Positions 50 through 36,434 of a DNA stretch of 36,434 nucleotides are shown here, piece by piece (position 1 is the stretch's first letter; each line of letters begins with the position of its first letter). Source of the stretch: a virus; the UHGV virus genome UHGV-0123062. The stretch is one strand, 5' to 3'. Both the position numbers and the translations under genes were made by a program. Under the pieces are notes generated by a model, which was given only the letters and a program-made list of their open reading frames with translations, did not search any database and was not told the DNA's origin.

Positions 50-1042
50 CTAATCGATGGACAGTTTATGGACACTTTCAGCCAGCGGATTAAAGTTGAT
101 CGCGTCCAGTAAAAAGTCCGGCGAAAAATGAGCGTACGTCATTGTTTGCTGAATCGTTGCGTGCCCCAGGATTCGTTGCAACGTAACAATATTTCCGCCA
201 TTCATCATAAAGTGTGTGGCAAATGTATGACGCATGACATGCGTAGCCTGCCCCTTCGGCAAATCCGGTTTCACCTCCTGAAGAATCTCCCGGAACTTCA
301 GATAATCAACCTGATACAATAACCCCGTTCGACGGGTTTTAATCAGAGGCACGACCGAATCCGCCACAGGAACCGAACGGGATTTTCCGTTTTTGGTGTT
401 AAAGAACGTCACCCGGTTGCCAACGATATGCTCTCCACGTAGTTCCGATGCTTCACTCCATCGGGCACCAGTAGAAAGACACAGAATGGCAACACGACGC
501 GCATCACCCTCCAGTCGCTCAAGAAGCCGTTCAATCTCATCATCAGAAAGAAAGGCCATCTCTGTGTTCTGAACTTTCAGTTTTCGTATACCGCGTACAG
601 GGTTCGCGTTGTGAAAGACCTCAGCTTCAATCAGCACCGTGAACATGGTAGACAGTACGCATAAGTCACGATTAATACTGGACGGCATTAATCCGGCCTG
701 TAATTTCTCTGACCGATATTCAAGCATAAATTTTCGCGTCATCTGACTGGCGCGAGGATCTCCCATTTCACGAACAACCTTCCCTAGCCTAACCCTGTAG
801 CTATCCCCGTAAGCCTGATTACGCCCATCAAGCATCCACCACGCATCAAGCAGCTCTGATAATCGCCGCTGATCAGCTGGCTTAGCCTGCCATGGCTTGT
901 CATGAAAGTTCTGTAACACATACTTCTCAAACTCCTGAGCCTTTGATTTCAGGGCAAAGATTTTTCGAATCCGCTTTCCTTCCGCCCCCTGCGGTCTGAC
1001 ATCGACCTGATAACGTCCGTCTTTGAGTTGCTTAATCGACAT
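50..1042 (-). CDS. int: Tyrosine integrase (P2 Int-like)
   Basis: ORF 50..1057 trimmed to ATG at 1042 preceded by GGAGGGG RBS; C-terminal R..HxxR (HVMRHTFATH) and catalytic Tyr context (QQTMTYAHF) typical of tyrosine recombinases; position at prophage end. Confidence 0.9.
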   Translation of the reverse strand: MSIKQLKDGRYQVDVRPQGAEGKRIRKIFALKSKAQEFEKYVLQNFHDKPWQAKPADQRRLSELLDAWWMLDGRNQAYGDSYRVRLGKVVREMGDPRASQMTRKFMLEYRSEKLQAGLMPSSINRDLCVLSTMFTVLIEAEVFHNANPVRGIRKLKVQNTEMAFLSDDEIERLLERLEGDARRVAILCLSTGARWSEASELRGEHIVGNRVTFFNTKNGKSRSVPVADSVVPLIKTRRTGLLYQVDYLKFREILQEVKPDLPKGQATHVMRHTFATHFMMNGGNIVTLQRILGHATIQQTMTYAHFSPDFLLDAINFNPLAESVHKLSID

Positions 1043-1111
1043 GATTAGCCCCTCCAACGGATAAATTAACTAAACACTCCTTGCGATATGTAATTCGCTC
1101 AATGTGTAGAG

Positions 1112-1557: not shown

Positions 1558-2079
1558 ATGCGGGACTTCATTGCCGATAAAGAGTTATCTGACCACCAAC
1601 CACTTCAGGAAAGTGACGCACTCAGCGGATCCATTGATGCCGCCAACGACGACGAGCACGAAGAAAACAAGAAAAAGCGTTCCTACAAAAAAGGAGCGAC
1701 TTTGCGGCTGGATGGTCCGATCGCCGGGCTTTGCTCTCTGGAAAAAGGCGCGGCATATATTGGGCTAACAAAATCTGCACTGCGCGTAGCCATTCATCGC
1801 GGTCAAATGCCGGGACACAAGACGCGCACAAACCCGGAAGATGAAAACTCAGACGGAGTATGGTGGTTTAACGCCAAAGAGTGGGACAAGTTGGCTGATG
1901 AGCTACCAGAGCACGAGCCCCCAGAATGGCACAACTGGAAAAGTTACTGGACGTATGACCGCCAGAAAAGGAAGTTCTCTCCAGCTAATAAAGAAGACTG
2001 CCAGACCATTAACGGTAAGCGAGTTTATACAGGCAGAAGCTCAAAACTGGACCAACTCAGAAACAACAGAGGCAACTAA
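1558..2079 (+). CDS. Cox-like excisionase/early regulator with long acidic N-terminal extension
   Basis: ATG 1558 with AGAGGA RBS; HTH-like segment (AAYIGLTKSALRVAIHRGQMP) and a GVWWFNAKEW segment resembling the P2 Cox C-terminal part (recalled from memory, not aligned); divergent from the repressor. Confidence 0.5.
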   Translation: MRDFIADKELSDHQPLQESDALSGSIDAANDDEHEENKKKRSYKKGATLRLDGPIAGLCSLEKGAAYIGLTKSALRVAIHRGQMPGHKTRTNPEDENSDGVWWFNAKEWDKLADELPEHEPPEWHNWKSYWTYDRQKRKFSPANKEDCQTINGKRVYTGRSSKLDQLRNNRGN

Positions 2080-2512: not shown

Positions 2513-2704
2513 TTAAAAATCAACCAGTTGTGTGACAGGTGGGTATTTACGCTGAATTTTGTCAGTTACTAACGCCAGTAATATATGAATCTCTGTGTTT
2601 AATGCGTCTTTATCACCCGTCGTTTTTACCCTGGGAGGGTTAATGTTATCCAGAGCAGCACTAAGTTCACTCAACAAATTAACAACTTTTTTATCTTCTG
2701 ACAT
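2513..2704 (-). CDS. Hypothetical small protein (63 aa), convergent with 2084..2506
   Basis: AT-rich ORF on the minus strand, 7 bp from the stop of the upstream gene. Confidence 0.35.
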   Translation of the reverse strand: MSEDKKVVNLLSELSAALDNINPPRVKTTGDKDALNTEIHILLALVTDKIQRKYPPVTQLVDF

Positions 2705-2841
2705 GAAAACCTCTTAACAATTTAATTAAACATAAGCCAGGACCTGAACCGGCCAGTCCAAGTCCTAGACACACAAAAAAAATACCACAAATCAATACAA
2801 GGTGACACGAGTACACCTTACCGAAGGTACAGAGTTTTAAT

Positions 2842-4372: not shown

Positions 4373-4576
4373 ATGGCAATTAAGCATTTTCCCGTCGTTC
4401 GCTTTACCTCCAGAGGGCGCGAATACGAGGTCGACGAACGCCTGATTACCACTATCGACAAACATCGTTCGGAAAAGGATGCACACCACATCTACCTCAC
4501 TGACGGCACTTACTTCTGCGCCACTAATGTGGCGCGGGTAAACCTTATCCGACAGGTACAGGAGCAGCGTAAATGA
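4373..4576 (+). CDS. Hypothetical protein, first gene of a four-gene coupled operon
   Basis: AAAGGGGG RBS; its stop overlaps the next start (ATGA). Confidence 0.55.
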   Translation: MAIKHFPVVRFTSRGREYEVDERLITTIDKHRSEKDAHHIYLTDGTYFCATNVARVNLIRQVQEQRK

Positions 4577-4791
4577 GCAGAAGGCGAATCACACGCAGGC
4601 ATCGCCGCACACACATGAATTCCTTACCGACGCTGAAAGAACTCATTCAACACGAGATCGCTGATTTCTGCGCAACGCTGGGGTCGCCTGGTGAACCGGA
4701 AACACCAGAAGCGATGCAGCGCGAACTCATGATGCGCATCGATAACGTTTTTGACTTTTTCCTGAATAACAAAAGAGAGCAATCAACATGA
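4573..4791 (+). CDS. Hypothetical protein with Arg-rich N-terminus, operon gene 2
   Basis: ATGA start/stop overlaps on both sides; N-terminus MSRRRITRRHRRTH. Confidence 0.5.
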   Translation: MSRRRITRRHRRTHMNSLPTLKELIQHEIADFCATLGSPGEPETPEAMQRELMMRIDNVFDFFLNNKREQST

Positions 4792-9760: not shown

Positions 9761-10720
9761 ATGAAAATTTGTATCGACGACGGCTCCACCAACATCAAGC
9801 TGGCATGGACTGAGAACGGCGAACGCCGCAACGCCATCAGCCCGAACAGCTTCAAGTCGGAATGGTCTGCGCCGTTCGGTGGCACGCAGCCCGCGAACTA
9901 CATGCTTGATGGCGTGCGCTATGGTTTTGATCCGGTCAGCGATCGCTTTGTCCAGACGACCGACACGCAATACCAGTACAGCGATGTGAATGTAATTGCC
10001 ATTCATCACGCGCTGGTCAAATCAGGCATCACACCACAGGAAGTGGATGTGGTTGTCACCCTGCCACTGAGCGAGTATTTCGACACAAACGCACAGCCGG
10101 ACATGGCCAACATCAACCGCAAAAAAGCGAACGTTATGCGCCCGGTGGAGTACCAGAACGGCGAAGCATTCACTATCCGTAACGTGCGGGTTATGCCTGA
10201 ATCCATTCCGGCTGGCTTTAAGGCACTGGCTGACATGAGTCCGTTTGAATCCCTGCTGATTGTGGATTTAGGCGGAACCACGCTGGATGTGGCAAAGGTT
10301 CAGGGACAACTGGCAGGTATCAGCCAGGTGTTTTGCGATCCACACGTAGGCGTTTCCCTGATGTCCGATGCCGTACTGTCGGTGATGGCCACTAACGGTA
10401 TGCGTACCAGTCACCACATCGCCAATACCATTATCGAACATCGCCATGATGAAGCCTGGCTGCGCCAGCACATCCACAATGACGCGCATTACGCCAGCCT
10501 GATGGCGGTTATTCGTGAAAAGGAAGAAACACTGAAACAACGCGTGATCCGCGCGCTGGCGGGTTTTTCGGGTTACGGGCGGGTGATGATTGTCGGTGGC
10601 GGGGCAGAAATTGTGGCACCCGCTATCCGCGAAGCCTGCGGAGTTAATGCGACTTTCATCGCGGACGGGGTGCCACAGTTTGCTCTGGTTAATGGGCTGT
10701 ACGCAATGGACAAGGAGTAA
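9761..10720 (+). CDS. parM: ParM/StbA-family actin-like partition ATPase
   Basis: N-terminal phosphate-1 motif (ICIDDGSTNIKLAW), ISPNSFK, YSDVNVIAIHHAL, VMPESIPAG, LIVDLGGTTLD and IVGGGAE match my recollection of plasmid R1 ParM along the whole length; AAGGA RBS. Confidence 0.85.
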   Translation: MKICIDDGSTNIKLAWTENGERRNAISPNSFKSEWSAPFGGTQPANYMLDGVRYGFDPVSDRFVQTTDTQYQYSDVNVIAIHHALVKSGITPQEVDVVVTLPLSEYFDTNAQPDMANINRKKANVMRPVEYQNGEAFTIRNVRVMPESIPAGFKALADMSPFESLLIVDLGGTTLDVAKVQGQLAGISQVFCDPHVGVSLMSDAVLSVMATNGMRTSHHIANTIIEHRHDEAWLRQHIHNDAHYASLMAVIREKEETLKQRVIRALAGFSGYGRVMIVGGGAEIVAPAIREACGVNATFIADGVPQFALVNGLYAMDKE

Positions 10721-10724
10721 ACCA

Positions 10725-11036
10725 ATGACGACACCAACCAGACGGATAAGTTTCTATCTGAAGCCCGCCGCCGTCAAGAACGAAGGCGAAGCATGCGCCT
10801 GGCTGGACAGCCTTACACCAGAAGCCCGCAAAAGTGGTCAACGCGTGGCTTTTCTGGCCGGGCTGGCACTACTGAAAATGAATCCGGCAGAGGCTTACCG
10901 ACTGGCTGCATGGGCTGATGATGAGGCGTTATCAATGACACAAACCAGGACAGAACGCCCCGCGTCACAGCCAGTATCAACCGCACAGATAACCAGTCAG
11001 ATGGCCGGAAATATCCGGGCGTTATTTCCCGAATAA
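10725..11036 (+). CDS. parR: ParR-like ribbon-helix-helix partition adaptor
   Basis: Immediately downstream of parM with AAGGAG RBS; N-terminal beta-strand segment (RRISFYLKP), FLAGLALL and C-terminal NIRALFPE resemble R1 ParR as recalled; start trimmed to ATG 10725 inside listed ORF 10590..11036. Confidence 0.65.
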   Translation: MTTPTRRISFYLKPAAVKNEGEACAWLDSLTPEARKSGQRVAFLAGLALLKMNPAEAYRLAAWADDEALSMTQTRTERPASQPVSTAQITSQMAGNIRALFPE

Positions 11037-11099: not shown

Positions 11100-11744
11100 A
11101 TGCAACACATTGACAGAGAAAAAGCGCAGCGACTGATTGAGCGGATGGAAGCGCTGGCGAAAGAAGAAAATGTCAACATCCAAAAAATAGCTGAATGTGG
11201 CCAGATAGTTCTTCGTCGTGAAAAAGACCTCAAACAACTGATGTCTGGCGAAACCAGCAAAACATGGACTTCAGGCGAGAAGACGGTTTATTGCAGCTTC
11301 TGCAATAAATCCCAGTACGAAGTCACAAAGGTGATTGCCGGACCGTCTGTTTACATCTGCAATGAGTGCGTGGATTTGTGCAATGAAATTATCAGGAAAG
11401 AAGTGACAGACAAAAAGGAAAAAAAACGCATGAACAGAAAACAGAAACAAGAGTTGAAATACTTCTTACGTAAAGAAATTGCCAGGCTTGAAGATGCAGA
11501 GTCACAATCATCAGAAATTCCGTTCGGAATGGATATCAACGACGCCCGTATGCTCCAGGCATACCGCATAGCTCAGGCTGCACTACAGGCAAAACCGTCA
11601 GATGGACTGGTTAGAGCAGTACATTTCTATGAACAGGTAAAGCGTGAGAATCCGCCAGTCGAAACTGGAGTATGGAAAGACGCTATTGACTGGGTGACCA
11701 AAGAGGCTTGCCAAGCTGTAGACATTGGCATCAAAGGAGAGTGA
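11100..11744 (+). CDS. ClpX zinc-binding-domain (ZBD) mimic protein
   Basis: Residues ~64-100 ([39 protein letters not shown]) closely match the C4 zinc-ribbon of the ClpX N-terminal domain as I recall it from E. coli ClpX; no AAA+ ATPase module follows; flanking regions are unrelated to ClpX. Confidence 0.75.
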
Positions 11745-34642: not shown

Positions 34643-35752
34643 ATGACCAACACCACCATGCAATTGCTCAGTCAGAGCACAGACCCCGTGAAAATGCCGG
34701 ATTTTGATATTCTCGCGGAGGGGGAAACGCTGTCCGGCGTGGCAGAGCGCCTGATGAGTCTGTCACTGACCGACAACCGGGGATTTGAAGCGGACCAGCT
34801 CACCATCACGCTGGATGATGCGGATGGTCAGTTGCAGCTACCGCCACGGGGCGCGCGTCTGACGGTTCTCATTGGCTGGAAAGGCGAACCGCTGACAGAA
34901 AAAGGCACTTACATTGTTGATGAAATCGCTCACGAAGGACCGCCGGACAGGCTGACGGTTTCAGCCAGAAGCGCAGATTTTCGGGATGAATTTAACGTTA
35001 AACGTGAGGTGTCCTGGCATGATGTGACCGTTGAGCGCGTGGTATCCGCCATCGCTCATCGGTACGGTCTGAAACCGCAAATCAGCGAAATGCTGATGGA
35101 TATCGAAATCGACCACGCCGACCAGACCGAAGAAAGCGATATGTCCTTCCTTACGCGCATGGCGGAAATGCTGGGCGCAATCACCACGGTAAAAAGCGGT
35201 AATCTGTTATTCATCATGCCCGGCGGTGGCGTGAACGCACAGGGCCAGCCGTTGCCATCGTTTGCCATCACACGCAGCAGCGGCGATCGCCATCAGTTCC
35301 GCATTGCTGACCGCGAAGCGTATACGGGGGTACGCGCTTACTGGCTTGATCTTAATTACGGGAAAAAGAAAAAAGTCAGCGTGAAACGCCGTAAACCGCC
35401 AAAACCCAAAAAGGAGAAAAGCAGCAGCCGTGAAGGTGATTATATGGAAGGCGCGGAAGGCAATGTGTTTGTGTTACGCAAGACTTATCAGAACGAGCAG
35501 GCAGCAAGACGCGCAGCGGCGGCAAAGTGGCAGCAACTACAACGCGGAGCCGCATCATTCTCCATCACGCTGGCGCGTGGACGTGCAGAACTCTACCCCG
35601 AAATGCATGGCACGGTAACAGGATTTAAAAGCGAGATTGATAATCAGGACTGGATCATTGCAAAAGCCGAGCACACCATTGATAACAGCGGTTTTACCAC
35701 GCAGCTTGAGCTTGAGGCAAAAATCCCGGAATGGATAGCGGAAACAGAGTGA
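34643..35752 (+). CDS. D: Tail protein D (P2 D-like)
   Basis: Start taken at ATG 34643 (GGGAGGG RBS); listed ORF begins at 34622. Confidence 0.85.
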   Translation: MTNTTMQLLSQSTDPVKMPDFDILAEGETLSGVAERLMSLSLTDNRGFEADQLTITLDDADGQLQLPPRGARLTVLIGWKGEPLTEKGTYIVDEIAHEGPPDRLTVSARSADFRDEFNVKREVSWHDVTVERVVSAIAHRYGLKPQISEMLMDIEIDHADQTEESDMSFLTRMAEMLGAITTVKSGNLLFIMPGGGVNAQGQPLPSFAITRSSGDRHQFRIADREAYTGVRAYWLDLNYGKKKKVSVKRRKPPKPKKEKSSSREGDYMEGAEGNVFVLRKTYQNEQAARRAAAAKWQQLQRGAASFSITLARGRAELYPEMHGTVTGFKSEIDNQDWIIAKAEHTIDNSGFTTQLELEAKIPEWIAETE

Positions 35753-35792: not shown

Positions 35793-36053
35793 ATGTTCCG
35801 TTGTCCGCTTTGTGGCGCATCTGCCCGTATCCGCACCAGTCGTCCGGAAAATGATTCAAACACCGTGCGGCAAAAGTATTACCAGTGTAACAATCTGGAA
35901 TGCGGCGTATGCTTCTCAACACTGGAAGCTTTCCATAAATTCACATCAAAACACGCCTCCGGCGTTCACTCTTCAGAAGGTATCCCGTGGCATGAGCTGC
36001 CAGCTTCACACAGGGGAAACAATCAGATGAGTTTGCCTTTACCTCAGAATTAA
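35793..36053 (+). CDS. ogr: Late transcription activator, zinc finger (Ogr-like)
   Basis: N-terminal C-x2-C ... C-x4-C pattern (MFRCPLCGASARIRTSR...YQCNNLEC) as in P2 Ogr; GGGAGG RBS; terminal position in the prophage. Confidence 0.85.
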   Translation: MFRCPLCGASARIRTSRPENDSNTVRQKYYQCNNLECGVCFSTLEAFHKFTSKHASGVHSSEGIPWHELPASHRGNNQMSLPLPQN

Positions 36054-36113
36054 CAGGCAGAATTGCCGGAGTAACAAAAAAGCGATAGATTACGCGCGGG
36101 TGCCTTTCGGCTG

Positions 36114-36326
36114 ATGGTCGGAGGGAATACCCGAAGGCCAGATGTGGAAAGGCCCCGGAAAACATCTCTGTTTAACCGAGGCCCTAACCGCATTACCTTG
36201 ACAAGTGAAAGGTTAGCGCCTCTCCGGAAAAGGAGCAAGTGCTATGTCGCAAAAATCGCTTACGGCCATCACGTTCTGCGTGACGGCAATCCTCATCATC
36301 TGGATGCTGCACGGTTCGCTGTGTGA
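36114..36326 (+). CDS. Possible mok-like overlapping leader ORF (70 codons)
   Basis: Listed ORF starts upstream of the hok-like gene and overlaps it in another frame, as in hok/mok/sok loci; sequence itself is uninformative. Confidence 0.3.
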   Translation: MVGGNTRRPDVERPRKTSLFNRGPNRITLTSERLAPLRKRSKCYVAKIAYGHHVLRDGNPHHLDAARFAV

Positions 36327-36384
36327 AATACGGATGAGTTTCTGGGGAGCGGAGTTTGCGGCGTTCTTACAGTGTAAGCAGTAA
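36244..36384 (+). CDS. Hok/Gef-family type I toxin (46 aa)
   Basis: Below the ORF-track cutoff; product MSQKSLTAITFCVTAILIIWMLHGSLCEIRMSFWGAEFAAFLQCKQ has an N-terminal TM helix and the conserved SLCE(I/L)R and AAF(L) signatures; AGGAG RBS 8 nt upstream. Confidence 0.6.
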   Translation: MSQKSLTAITFCVTAILIIWMLHGSLCEIRMSFWGAEFAAFLQCKQ

Positions 36385-36434
36385 GGAAACCGCGACGGGG
36401 AAGGCAACTTCCCCGTCAATCGGTTGCCAGGGTA

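Follow-up and report, generated by a model that had tools for sequence, protein, structure and literature searches.

A probable hok/sok-type toxin-antitoxin cassette carried as cargo at the right end of a P2-like prophage of E. coli

The last bases of the virus genome UHGV-0123062 raise the question of what a small, membrane-directed peptide is doing at the very edge of an integrated phage, and whether it belongs to the phage at all. The window, by which we mean the whole stretch of 36,434 nucleotides that was analysed, is a P2-like E. coli prophage which runs from the integrase gene (50..1057, minus strand) through to just beyond ogr. A sequence-only reading had placed a hok-like type I toxin locus immediately after ogr; protein, RNA and comparative evidence agree with this, and we consider the element very probably to be a type I toxin-antitoxin cassette of the hok/sok kind, which the prophage carries as cargo. 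It occupies the final 370 bases of the window, between ogr and the attachment site. In what follows we discuss the toxin, the setting, the RNA elements which would control expression, and the possible roles.

The coding part of the cassette consists of the following features:

36244..36384, plus strand: hok-family toxin gene, 46 codons and a stop, with the product MSQKSLTAITFCVTAILIIWMLHGSLCEIRMSFWGAEFAAFLQCKQ
36230..36235, plus strand: hok Shine-Dalgarno sequence AAGGAG, 8 nt before the ATG

This ORF had been described as Hok/Gef-like, with an N-terminal transmembrane helix, the SLCE(I/L)R and AAF signatures and a good ribosome-binding site, and all of these are present. In the 46-residue peptide the hydrophobic stretch covers approximately residues 5-24, SLCEIR residues 25-30, and AAF residues 39-41. 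Alignment to the Hok family, one of the checks proposed, gave a match to Pfam PF01848 (HOK_GEF) at residues 7-44 with E=4.1e-7 and 29.9 bits, above the gathering score of 22, and a match to PHROG 251 ("MokW-like host killing") across the whole peptide (E=1.3e-22). The best NCBIfam model is HokA (NF007290; E=2.2e-8); its 34 bits are far under the equivalog cut-off of 89, and the protein is not HokA. BLASTP against R1 Hok, the query sequence of which was confirmed as exact by tblastn against plasmids, shows 39% identity over a 31-residue core that includes SLCEIR and AAF. Across 1264 Hok peptides, seven positions (M1, C16, T18, L30, C31, E32 and E41) are each more than 80% conserved (bioRxiv 10.1101/2025.08.07.668861) and, in the BLASTP register against R1 Hok, all seven are matched by M1, C12, T14, L26, C27, E28 and E37 of the peptide. 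Position 48 of the family logo is a hard-coded Cys (position 44 of the peptide), as in HokA. The 46-codon ORF is, as judged from its sequence, a member of the Hok/Gef family.

Variation was followed in 74 distinct alleles, taken from a pattern scan of IMG/VR together with loci fetched earlier; the search pattern fixes mRNA positions 1-20, so that conservation at those positions is meaningless. A scan of one genome per species yielded five loci only and was of little use for covariation. Three of these five are near-identical E. coli-type sequence in contigs labelled Planococcaceae, Vagococcus and Xanthomonas, and are probably contamination. The 46-codon frame is intact in 72 of the 74 alleles and damaged in two; variability at its three codon positions amounts to 5.9/3.2/8.3. 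A median pairwise dN/dS of 0.21 shows purifying selection on the toxin ORF.

The prophage is of the P88-like type (Xuanwuvirus, P2-like), and two of its genes precede the cassette:

ending at 35752: tail gene D
35793..36053: ogr (Pfam Ogr_Delta, E=5e-14)

The sequence-only reading had left it open whether the toxin locus was host-encoded, next to the attachment site, or cargo at the prophage end. The empty site in K-12 and the prophages at serS and flk bear out cargo and speak against the host. To extend the sequence past the window we used E. coli strain 1450, where the counterpart of 36060..36434 is 100% identical. In this strain the prophage adjoins serS, and alignment with K-12 shows an empty serS-dmsA site without the cassette, homology coming back only at the serS terminator, approximately 265 bp beyond the hok stop. 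A pair of terminators and a P2-type att arm, similar to the end of the P88 record, lie in the interval between hok and this junction. At flk, too, a related prophage carries hok after ogr, and the same order is found in prophages at serS. Because it lies between ogr and att, is missing from the empty K-12 site, and follows ogr at other insertion sites, the cassette is prophage cargo and not host DNA. The same prophage also encodes a ParM/StbA actin-like ATPase and a StbB-like protein (9761..11036), both common to P88-like phages. With these genes and the cassette, an integrating phage has homologues of the two loci that stabilise plasmid R1, parM/stbB and hok/sok, which is a small point of interest.

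The element is already known, being an ordinary annotated Hok cassette. Three complete E. coli genomes (1450, AZ184 and 1434) match the 375 bases from 36060 to 36434 at 100% identity, and the DNA of the ORF is that of the RefSeq CDS of WP_000078916.1, "Hok/Gef family protein." Among 5426 complete E. coli genomes, approximately 1750 have related cassettes, and a single genome may have as many as nine; UTI89 has a copy that is 95.6% identical. The ogr-hok order recurs at 93-98% identity in phages P88, PhiR44_2, Chuche, 500465-2, Shae_phiSM, P884B11 and 520873; the records of P88, Chuche, 500465-2, P884B11 and 520873 label the ORF "MokW-like host killing." An 82%-identical version, which belongs to the 46-residue branch and is not hokW, adjoins lom in many Stx phages; this 46-residue subfamily is also found in lambdoid phages, beside lom and tail genes, while more distant versions occur in non-phage islands beside an L31 paralogue. 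In a large survey hok was approximately four-fold enriched in prophages and present in 9.3% of Escherichia phages (bioRxiv 10.1101/2025.08.07.668861). A literature search on hok in P2-like, Peduoviridae or P88 phages returned nothing specific.

The elements predicted for the hok mRNA are, from 5′ to 3′:

36063..36091, plus strand: predicted hok promoter, with -35 TTGCCG (36063..36068), a 17-nt spacer and -10 TAGATT (36086..36091)
36098..36113, plus strand: tac element, the mRNA 5′ end GGGUGCCUUUCGGCUG, at which the match to Rfam RF01794 begins
36147..36156, plus strand: ucb-like box GAAAGGCCCC, the alternative partner of tac
36178..36222, plus strand: target stem of the processed mRNA, GAGGCCCUAACC (36178..36189) paired with GGUUAGCGCCUC (36211..36222) in the fold of the truncated RNA
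36214..36244, plus strand: hok initiation hairpin, UAGCGC paired with G(C/U)GCUA and, within, CUCC with GGAG; 5′ arm UAGCGCCUCUCC
36385..36434, plus strand: hok 3′ UTR, cut by the window end
36393..36418, plus strand: G+C-rich 3′ stem-loop, CGACGGGGAAG-GCAA-CUUCCCCGUC
equivalent of 36443..36452, beginning 9 nt past the window end, plus strand: fbi AAAGGCACCC, read from the identical strain 1450

Transcription of hok would begin at G 36098, approximately 7 nt past the -10 hexamer. Alleles located after ogr, after lom and in islands retain the arrangement TTGnnn-17 nt-TA(g/a/c)ATT-6 nt-GGGTGCC, and little besides its TTGnnn-17 nt-TA(g/a/c)ATT portion is shared upstream of the cassette across these contexts. 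Homology among copies from unrelated contexts starts exactly at the predicted -35 box, which argues for the cassette being a small autonomous unit that moves between elements. A generic sigma-70 consensus scan of both strands of the locus returned no site, the hok promoter matching at 7/12 positions; because of this negative scan, the promoter calls made here are predictions which rest on conservation and on homology to R1.

A full-length hit to Rfam RF01794 covers the leader (36098..36257, plus strand); its 48.4 bits (E=1e-9) fall short of the gathering threshold of 59. Although this family is named "sok," what it describes is the leader of the hok sense strand: an authentic R1-type locus scores 87.2 bits in the same register, on the hok strand and between the start of the mRNA and the ATG of hok. 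The comparison suggests that the prophage locus is a diverged branch of the hok-leader family.

That the window would end before the 3′ fold-back region had been anticipated, correctly, since fbi begins only just past its end. Both fbi and the terminator lie outside the window, the latter approximately 25 nt beyond fbi in the strain 1450 extension and approximately 60 nt past the window end. Extension of the sequence downstream, as had been proposed, revealed in fbi a perfect complement of the mRNA 5′ end: GGGUGCCUUU pairs with it over a perfect 10 bp, extended to approximately 15 bp. Minimum free energy folds of RNAs of 320-360 nt are indicative only, and in these the partner of tac is fbi in the full-length RNA and ucb in the 3′-truncated one. 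The tac-fbi helix closes the fold of the 358-nt full-length RNA (-160.5 kcal/mol, z=-6.2); in the RNA lacking fbi (36098..36420; z=-6.2) the 5′ end pairs with GGAAAGGCCCC (36146..36156), RNA positions 1-11 with 50-59. The tac and fbi sequences covary between families, being GGCGCUU/AAGCGCC in R1 and GGGUGCC/GGCACCC at this locus; this covariation was read directly from the sequences and not pair-counted, as the MAFFT alignment of the two leaders, R1 and local, is wrong at their 5′ ends. In R1 the published switch has tac/fbi in the inert form, and tac/ucb together with SD/dcb in the processed form (PMC9841398). In the modelled folds, the predicted change from tac-fbi to tac-ucb reproduces this switch.

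Further helices surround the hok start. The target stem carries a variable patch on top, and a GAGG at the position of the R1 mok Shine-Dalgarno sequence; the pairs of the tac-ucb helix and the target stem are compatible in 71-74 of the 74 alleles, the changes being plus-strand wobble only. The initiation hairpin encloses the hok Shine-Dalgarno sequence and the A of the AUG. Its predicted stability is -10 to -15 kcal/mol in all allele types, and the pairs of its outer stem can form in 73-74 of the 74 alleles, G.U substitutions included. The target stem and the initiation hairpin are mutually exclusive, because both use nucleotides 36214..36222. Beyond the coding sequence, the stem of the 3′ stem-loop is kept in homologues in which both loop and stem bases differ; it is collinear with the R1-type locus, where a stem-loop at this position forms the end of the processed mRNA and shields it. 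Variation within the helices is slight, and their support takes the form of strand-specific wobble changes, without double compensatory changes.

A search for a sok-like promoter and RNA on the minus strand around 36100..36250, another of the suggested checks, produced a candidate for each:

36210..36238, minus strand: predicted sok promoter, with -35 TTGCTC (36233..36238), a 17-nt spacer and -10 TAACCT (36210..36215)
36147..36203, minus strand: predicted Sok-like antisense RNA of approximately 57 nt, comprising a 5′ tail, a hairpin and a short U tract

Of the 74 alleles, 73 have the TAACCT hexamer unchanged, and the -35 hexamer keeps its TTG. The generic promoter scan did not pick up this site; in alignment, TTGCTC-17 nt-TAACCT coincides with TTGCGC-17 nt-TATCCT of the R1-type locus, hexamers that we take, from the work of the Gerdes laboratory, to be the R1 sok promoter. 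The ends of the antisense RNA are placed from the promoter and the hairpin. The latter (36149..36185, minus strand) starts approximately 20 nt past the presumed start of the RNA and is followed by UUUCC, and it folds better on the minus strand (-27.4 kcal/mol, z=-4.7) than on the plus strand (-22.4). At two places in the stem the minus strand has the wobble pairs U.G and G.U, in 72/74 and 29/74 alleles, respectively, where the plus strand would have the mismatches C.A and A.C; this strand asymmetry is the best evidence here that the hairpin has been selected as part of an antisense transcript. The 5′ single-stranded tail of the antisense RNA (36186..36203) is the most variable part of the cassette, with a mean majority frequency of 0.76 versus 0.86-0.95 elsewhere, which would fit an allele-specific recognition tail. 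Sok RNAs of R1 and of the K-12 loci are reported to show no cross-protection (PMC9841398). Together, the promoter-like pair of hexamers and the hairpin predict a Sok-like antisense RNA.

A second reading frame had been put forward as mok-like:

36114..36326, plus strand: 70-codon ORF overlapping hok out of frame, judged to be a chance open frame

The ORF exists at these coordinates, but it does not behave as a gene. It starts at mRNA +17, within the tac stem and with no Shine-Dalgarno sequence; in R1, by comparison, mok starts at +116, approximately 10 nt past GAGG (+104..107), and runs into hok (PMC9841398). The ATG is replaced by ACG in 3 of 10 homologues, and stops close the frame in the 96%-identical P88 allele. 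Only 8 of 74 alleles have the ORF. Variability at its three codon positions (5.6/5.3/5.8) shows no third-position bias, in contrast to hok, and between +17 and the hok ATG there are 129 to 135 nt, depending on the allele, leader length changing by non-multiples of three. Searches of Pfam, PHROG and NCBIfam with the 70-codon product returned no match. From its presence in 8/74 alleles, its absent codon periodicity and the frame-breaking indels, we judge that the ORF is not mok. We also sought a conserved substitute in the 36114 frame, in both alternative frames, and from the ATG conserved at mRNA +45, and none was conserved in frame, start or length. Forty-five of the 74 alleles have no ORF with a canonical start across the hok start in either alternative frame; in the others the overlapping ORF varies in both frame and start. 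The +45 ATG opens ORFs of 1 to 78 codons with no conserved reading frame. As neither the 70-codon frame nor the +45 frames are conserved, the leader appears to be conserved as RNA and not as coding sequence. Either regulation is unlike that of R1 or a non-canonical start has been overlooked.

From these elements the following mechanism is proposed. The cassette would be self-contained and approximately 400-450 bp in length, from the promoter at approximately 36063 to the terminator past the window end. From its plus strand would come an mRNA, stable and strongly folded, which encodes an inner-membrane toxin of 46 residues. As long as this RNA is full-length, tac would be paired with fbi and the toxin ribosome-binding site and start codon buried in the local hairpin, leaving the message silent. 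Slow 3′ trimming would strip fbi, whereupon tac would pair with ucb and the freed GAGGCCCUAACC with GGUUAGCGCCUC, presenting the antisense target. Since GGUUAGCGCCUC overlaps the anti-SD arm, this last pairing would also open the initiation hairpin. The short, unstable antisense RNA (transcribed from approximately 36203 to 36147) would pair with the leader, keep translation off and mark the duplex for RNase III; in covering GAGGCCCUAACC it may, besides creating this substrate, allow the initiation hairpin to re-form. When antisense synthesis stops, whether through loss of the element or because host or prophage transcription is shut off during infection or induction, toxin would be made and the membrane depolarised. 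The transcript ends, the processing, the RNase III step, the toxicity and the direct, mok-independent unmasking of the Shine-Dalgarno sequence are all inferred.

The mok-independent switch, taken by itself, is a model that we advance tentatively. In its wider form, for which our confidence is equally low, the 46-residue, phage-borne branch of Hok would work without mok, 3′ processing would unmask the hok ribosome-binding site directly, the antisense RNA would recapture GAGGCCCUAACC, and 36186..36203 would set allele-specific recognition, such that up to nine copies might coexist without cross-talk. A recent catalogue of Hok left Mok and Sok unanalysed, as hard to call (bioRxiv 10.1101/2025.08.07.668861). 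Against this model stands classical mok-dependent control, in which translation of the 70-codon ORF, or from an internal start in frame and downstream of GAGG 36178..36181 (AUU 36192 or UUG 36198), would open the hok start. In R1 translation of Hok needs Mok (PMC9841398), the GAGG that corresponds in position to the Shine-Dalgarno sequence of R1 mok is conserved, and in the present allele the frame is open from 36114 to 36326, overlapping hok. We regard this alternative as very unlikely, however, given that 45/74 alleles, P88 included, have a closed frame or no canonical start, that the overlapping ORFs which remain differ in frame and start, that codon periodicity is absent while the distance to the hok ATG changes, and that the conserved +45 ATG leads into such disparate ORFs.

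As to what a hok/sok cassette does for a prophage, we rank addiction or stabilisation of the prophage first, help with lysis at induction second, and exclusion of other phages third; the roles named in the sequence-only reading, post-segregational killing and abortive infection, are both plausible. A main role of the phage's own, in which the antisense RNA is lost after induction and Hok damages the membrane, hastening lysis and release, is possible but doubtful. The precedent is hokW-sokW of prophage Sp5, where sokW is gone after mitomycin C, HokW precedes the endolysin, and deletion halves the phage yield (PMC8621323). The occurrence of the 46-residue subfamily in lambdoid and Stx phages, beside lom and tail genes, points the same way. 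Yet Sp5 HokW belongs to a different, 51-residue branch, the present phage has lysis genes of its own, and the cassette is also found on non-phage islands. Defence of the lysogen is rather unlikely to be the main role: an invader would shut off transcription, the antisense RNA would decay and Hok would kill the cell, an abortive infection. P2-like prophages often carry defence cargo at variable sites, which favours such a role. So does the lowering of T4 plating and plaque size by R1 hok/sok on a multicopy plasmid, although the effect, as cited in PMC8621323, was modest and dependent on copy number. The PADLOC models gave no match to the Hok peptide or to neighbouring cargo, and hok was not enriched near defence systems in a large survey (bioRxiv 10.1101/2025.08.07.668861); both count against defence.

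The cassette might, finally, do nothing in the lysogen, as an inactive remnant. Many chromosomal hok loci of E. coli K-12 are inactivated, both promoters of the present locus are poor matches to the consensus, and the ORF is damaged in two of the 74 alleles. All elements are intact here, however; the toxin frame survives in nearly all alleles with the low dN/dS given above, and the non-coding control elements are conserved as much as the coding sequence or more. Furthermore, 42 of 45 Hok representatives tested were toxic, whatever their location (bioRxiv 10.1101/2025.08.07.668861). We regard a remnant as very unlikely.

As a discovery the locus carries little weight: the gene is annotated, the family is a textbook type I toxin-antitoxin system, and its enrichment in prophages has been reported. 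The value lies in annotation. The right end of the prophage cargo is fixed, the "mok" call is shown to be spurious, and RNA parts unannotated so far (two promoters, an antisense RNA and the switch helices) are now placed, as predictions. The apparent absence of a conserved mok in the 46-residue subfamily is a minor point of interest.

The nearest described counterparts are WP_000078916.1 of E. coli RefSeq genomes, with identical DNA, and gp52 of phage P88 (YP_009113095.1, "MokW-like host killing; hok/gef family protein"), with 95.7% identical DNA; both share the position after ogr. There is no difference of substance from the records of WP_000078916.1 and P88, except that these annotate the CDS and not the promoters, the antisense RNA or tac/fbi. 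Among prophage-borne systems, hokW-sokW of the Stx2 prophage Sp5 (E. coli O157:H7 Sakai) is likewise of the hok/sok family, and both toxins fall in PHROG 251; there, toxin and antisense antitoxin have been shown experimentally (PMC8621323). HokW, on the other hand, has 51 residues and begins MKQQKAM (from the primers of that paper), and its leader is near the Rfam consensus, the present locus being another branch. HokA of E. coli K-12 provides the best-scoring named Hok model (NF007290), and in both proteins both cysteines are hard-coded, so that TadA editing is not needed (bioRxiv 10.1101/2025.08.07.668861). The R1 hok/sok (parB) system differs in several respects: Hok of R1 has 52 residues compared with 46 in the prophage toxin, the two being 39% identical over the core, and Tyr48 of the former corresponds to the hard-coded Cys at position 44 of the latter. 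The prophage leader is approximately 30 nt shorter, lacks a conserved mok frame and scores below the Rfam threshold, and the cassette is phage-borne, whereas R1 hok/sok is plasmid-borne. The two are nevertheless collinear throughout, with the promoter, tac, ucb, the GAGG target and the sok promoter in the leader, followed by a sequestered hok Shine-Dalgarno sequence, a toxin ORF with the LCEIR core, the 3′ stem-loop and fbi; their hits to RF01794, that of the prophage leader being sub-threshold, lie in the same register, and they are predicted to share the same tac-fbi and tac-ucb alternatives.

The Rfam family RF01794 is named for the Sok antitoxin, but in a genuine R1-type hok/sok locus (L015, 182..353) it matches the hok-sense strand, and the match there runs from the 5′ end of the mRNA to the hok start codon; the corresponding span in the window is 36098..36257. 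Matches to RF01794 therefore mark the hok leader and do not show which way the antisense gene is oriented.

Within the alignment of cassette homologues, the highest variability of the entire cassette, 1-nt indels included, falls in the 18 nt at 36186..36203 (alignment columns about 125-140), and near-invariant blocks flank this patch on both sides. It corresponds to the predicted single-stranded 5′ tail of the antisense RNA and, on the mRNA, to the top of the target stem; two tandem cassette copies in one strain are unlike each other here. The patch could possibly be an allele-specific recognition code.

Up to nine matching places are found in some genomes, and seven in that of E. coli strain 48, where two diverged 46-codon hok cassettes (1936..2076 and 2658..2798 of locus L007) lie 0.7 kb apart and adjoin serS. 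Cassettes of the E. coli type also occur in contigs labelled as a Planococcaceae MAG, Vagococcus sp. and Xanthomonas pisi (L010, L011 and L013), with hok peptide identities of 98%, 98% and 72%, respectively; enterobacterial contamination or mis-binning of the assemblies is the most likely source of these.

The identical strain, E. coli 1450, provides the DNA beyond the window end (L001), in which the following lie 3′ of hok:

4417..4444, terminator
4483..4512, second terminator, strong and bidirectional
within 4400..4600, A+T-rich segment GATGGAC..TATGGACA..AAAATAAAATCCATTTATTTTCA

This A+T-rich segment, which probably represents the Int/IHF arm of attR, is similar both to the DNA adjoining the integrase gene (window 55..80) and to the sequence with which the P88 record ends. 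In a related prophage at flk (L004, 3047..3980), the stretch from hok to the att site encodes a regulator resembling Com together with a DNA methyltransferase, a pair arranged like that of Mu mom; the interval from ogr to att is thus a cargo hotspot.

The variable region that separates the replication gene from the portal gene contains a plasmid-type partition module (9761..11036, plus strand), which is adjoined by the gene of a ClpX-type zinc-finger protein:

9761..10720, plus strand, ParM/StbA (PF06406, E=2e-82; PF21523, E=3e-68)
10590..11036, plus strand, StbB/"Plasmid_stab_B" ORF overlapping the ParM/StbA gene (PF10784, E=6e-24)
11100..11744, plus strand, protein of 214 residues that has a C4 zinc finger of the ClpX type (PF06689, E=1e-17) and lacks an ATPase domain

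PADLOC gave no match for the zinc-finger protein. ParM is 98-99% identical in phages P88, P884B11, 520873, Shae_phiSM, PhiR44_2 and Chuche. The hok cassette is present in these six phages as well; the sole further phage match to ParM is in the P1-like phage-plasmid D6 (47.5%). With the partition module in addition to hok/sok, this prophage has homologues of both stability loci of plasmid R1, parA and parB, which is a hint of either an episomal phase or cargo of plasmid origin.
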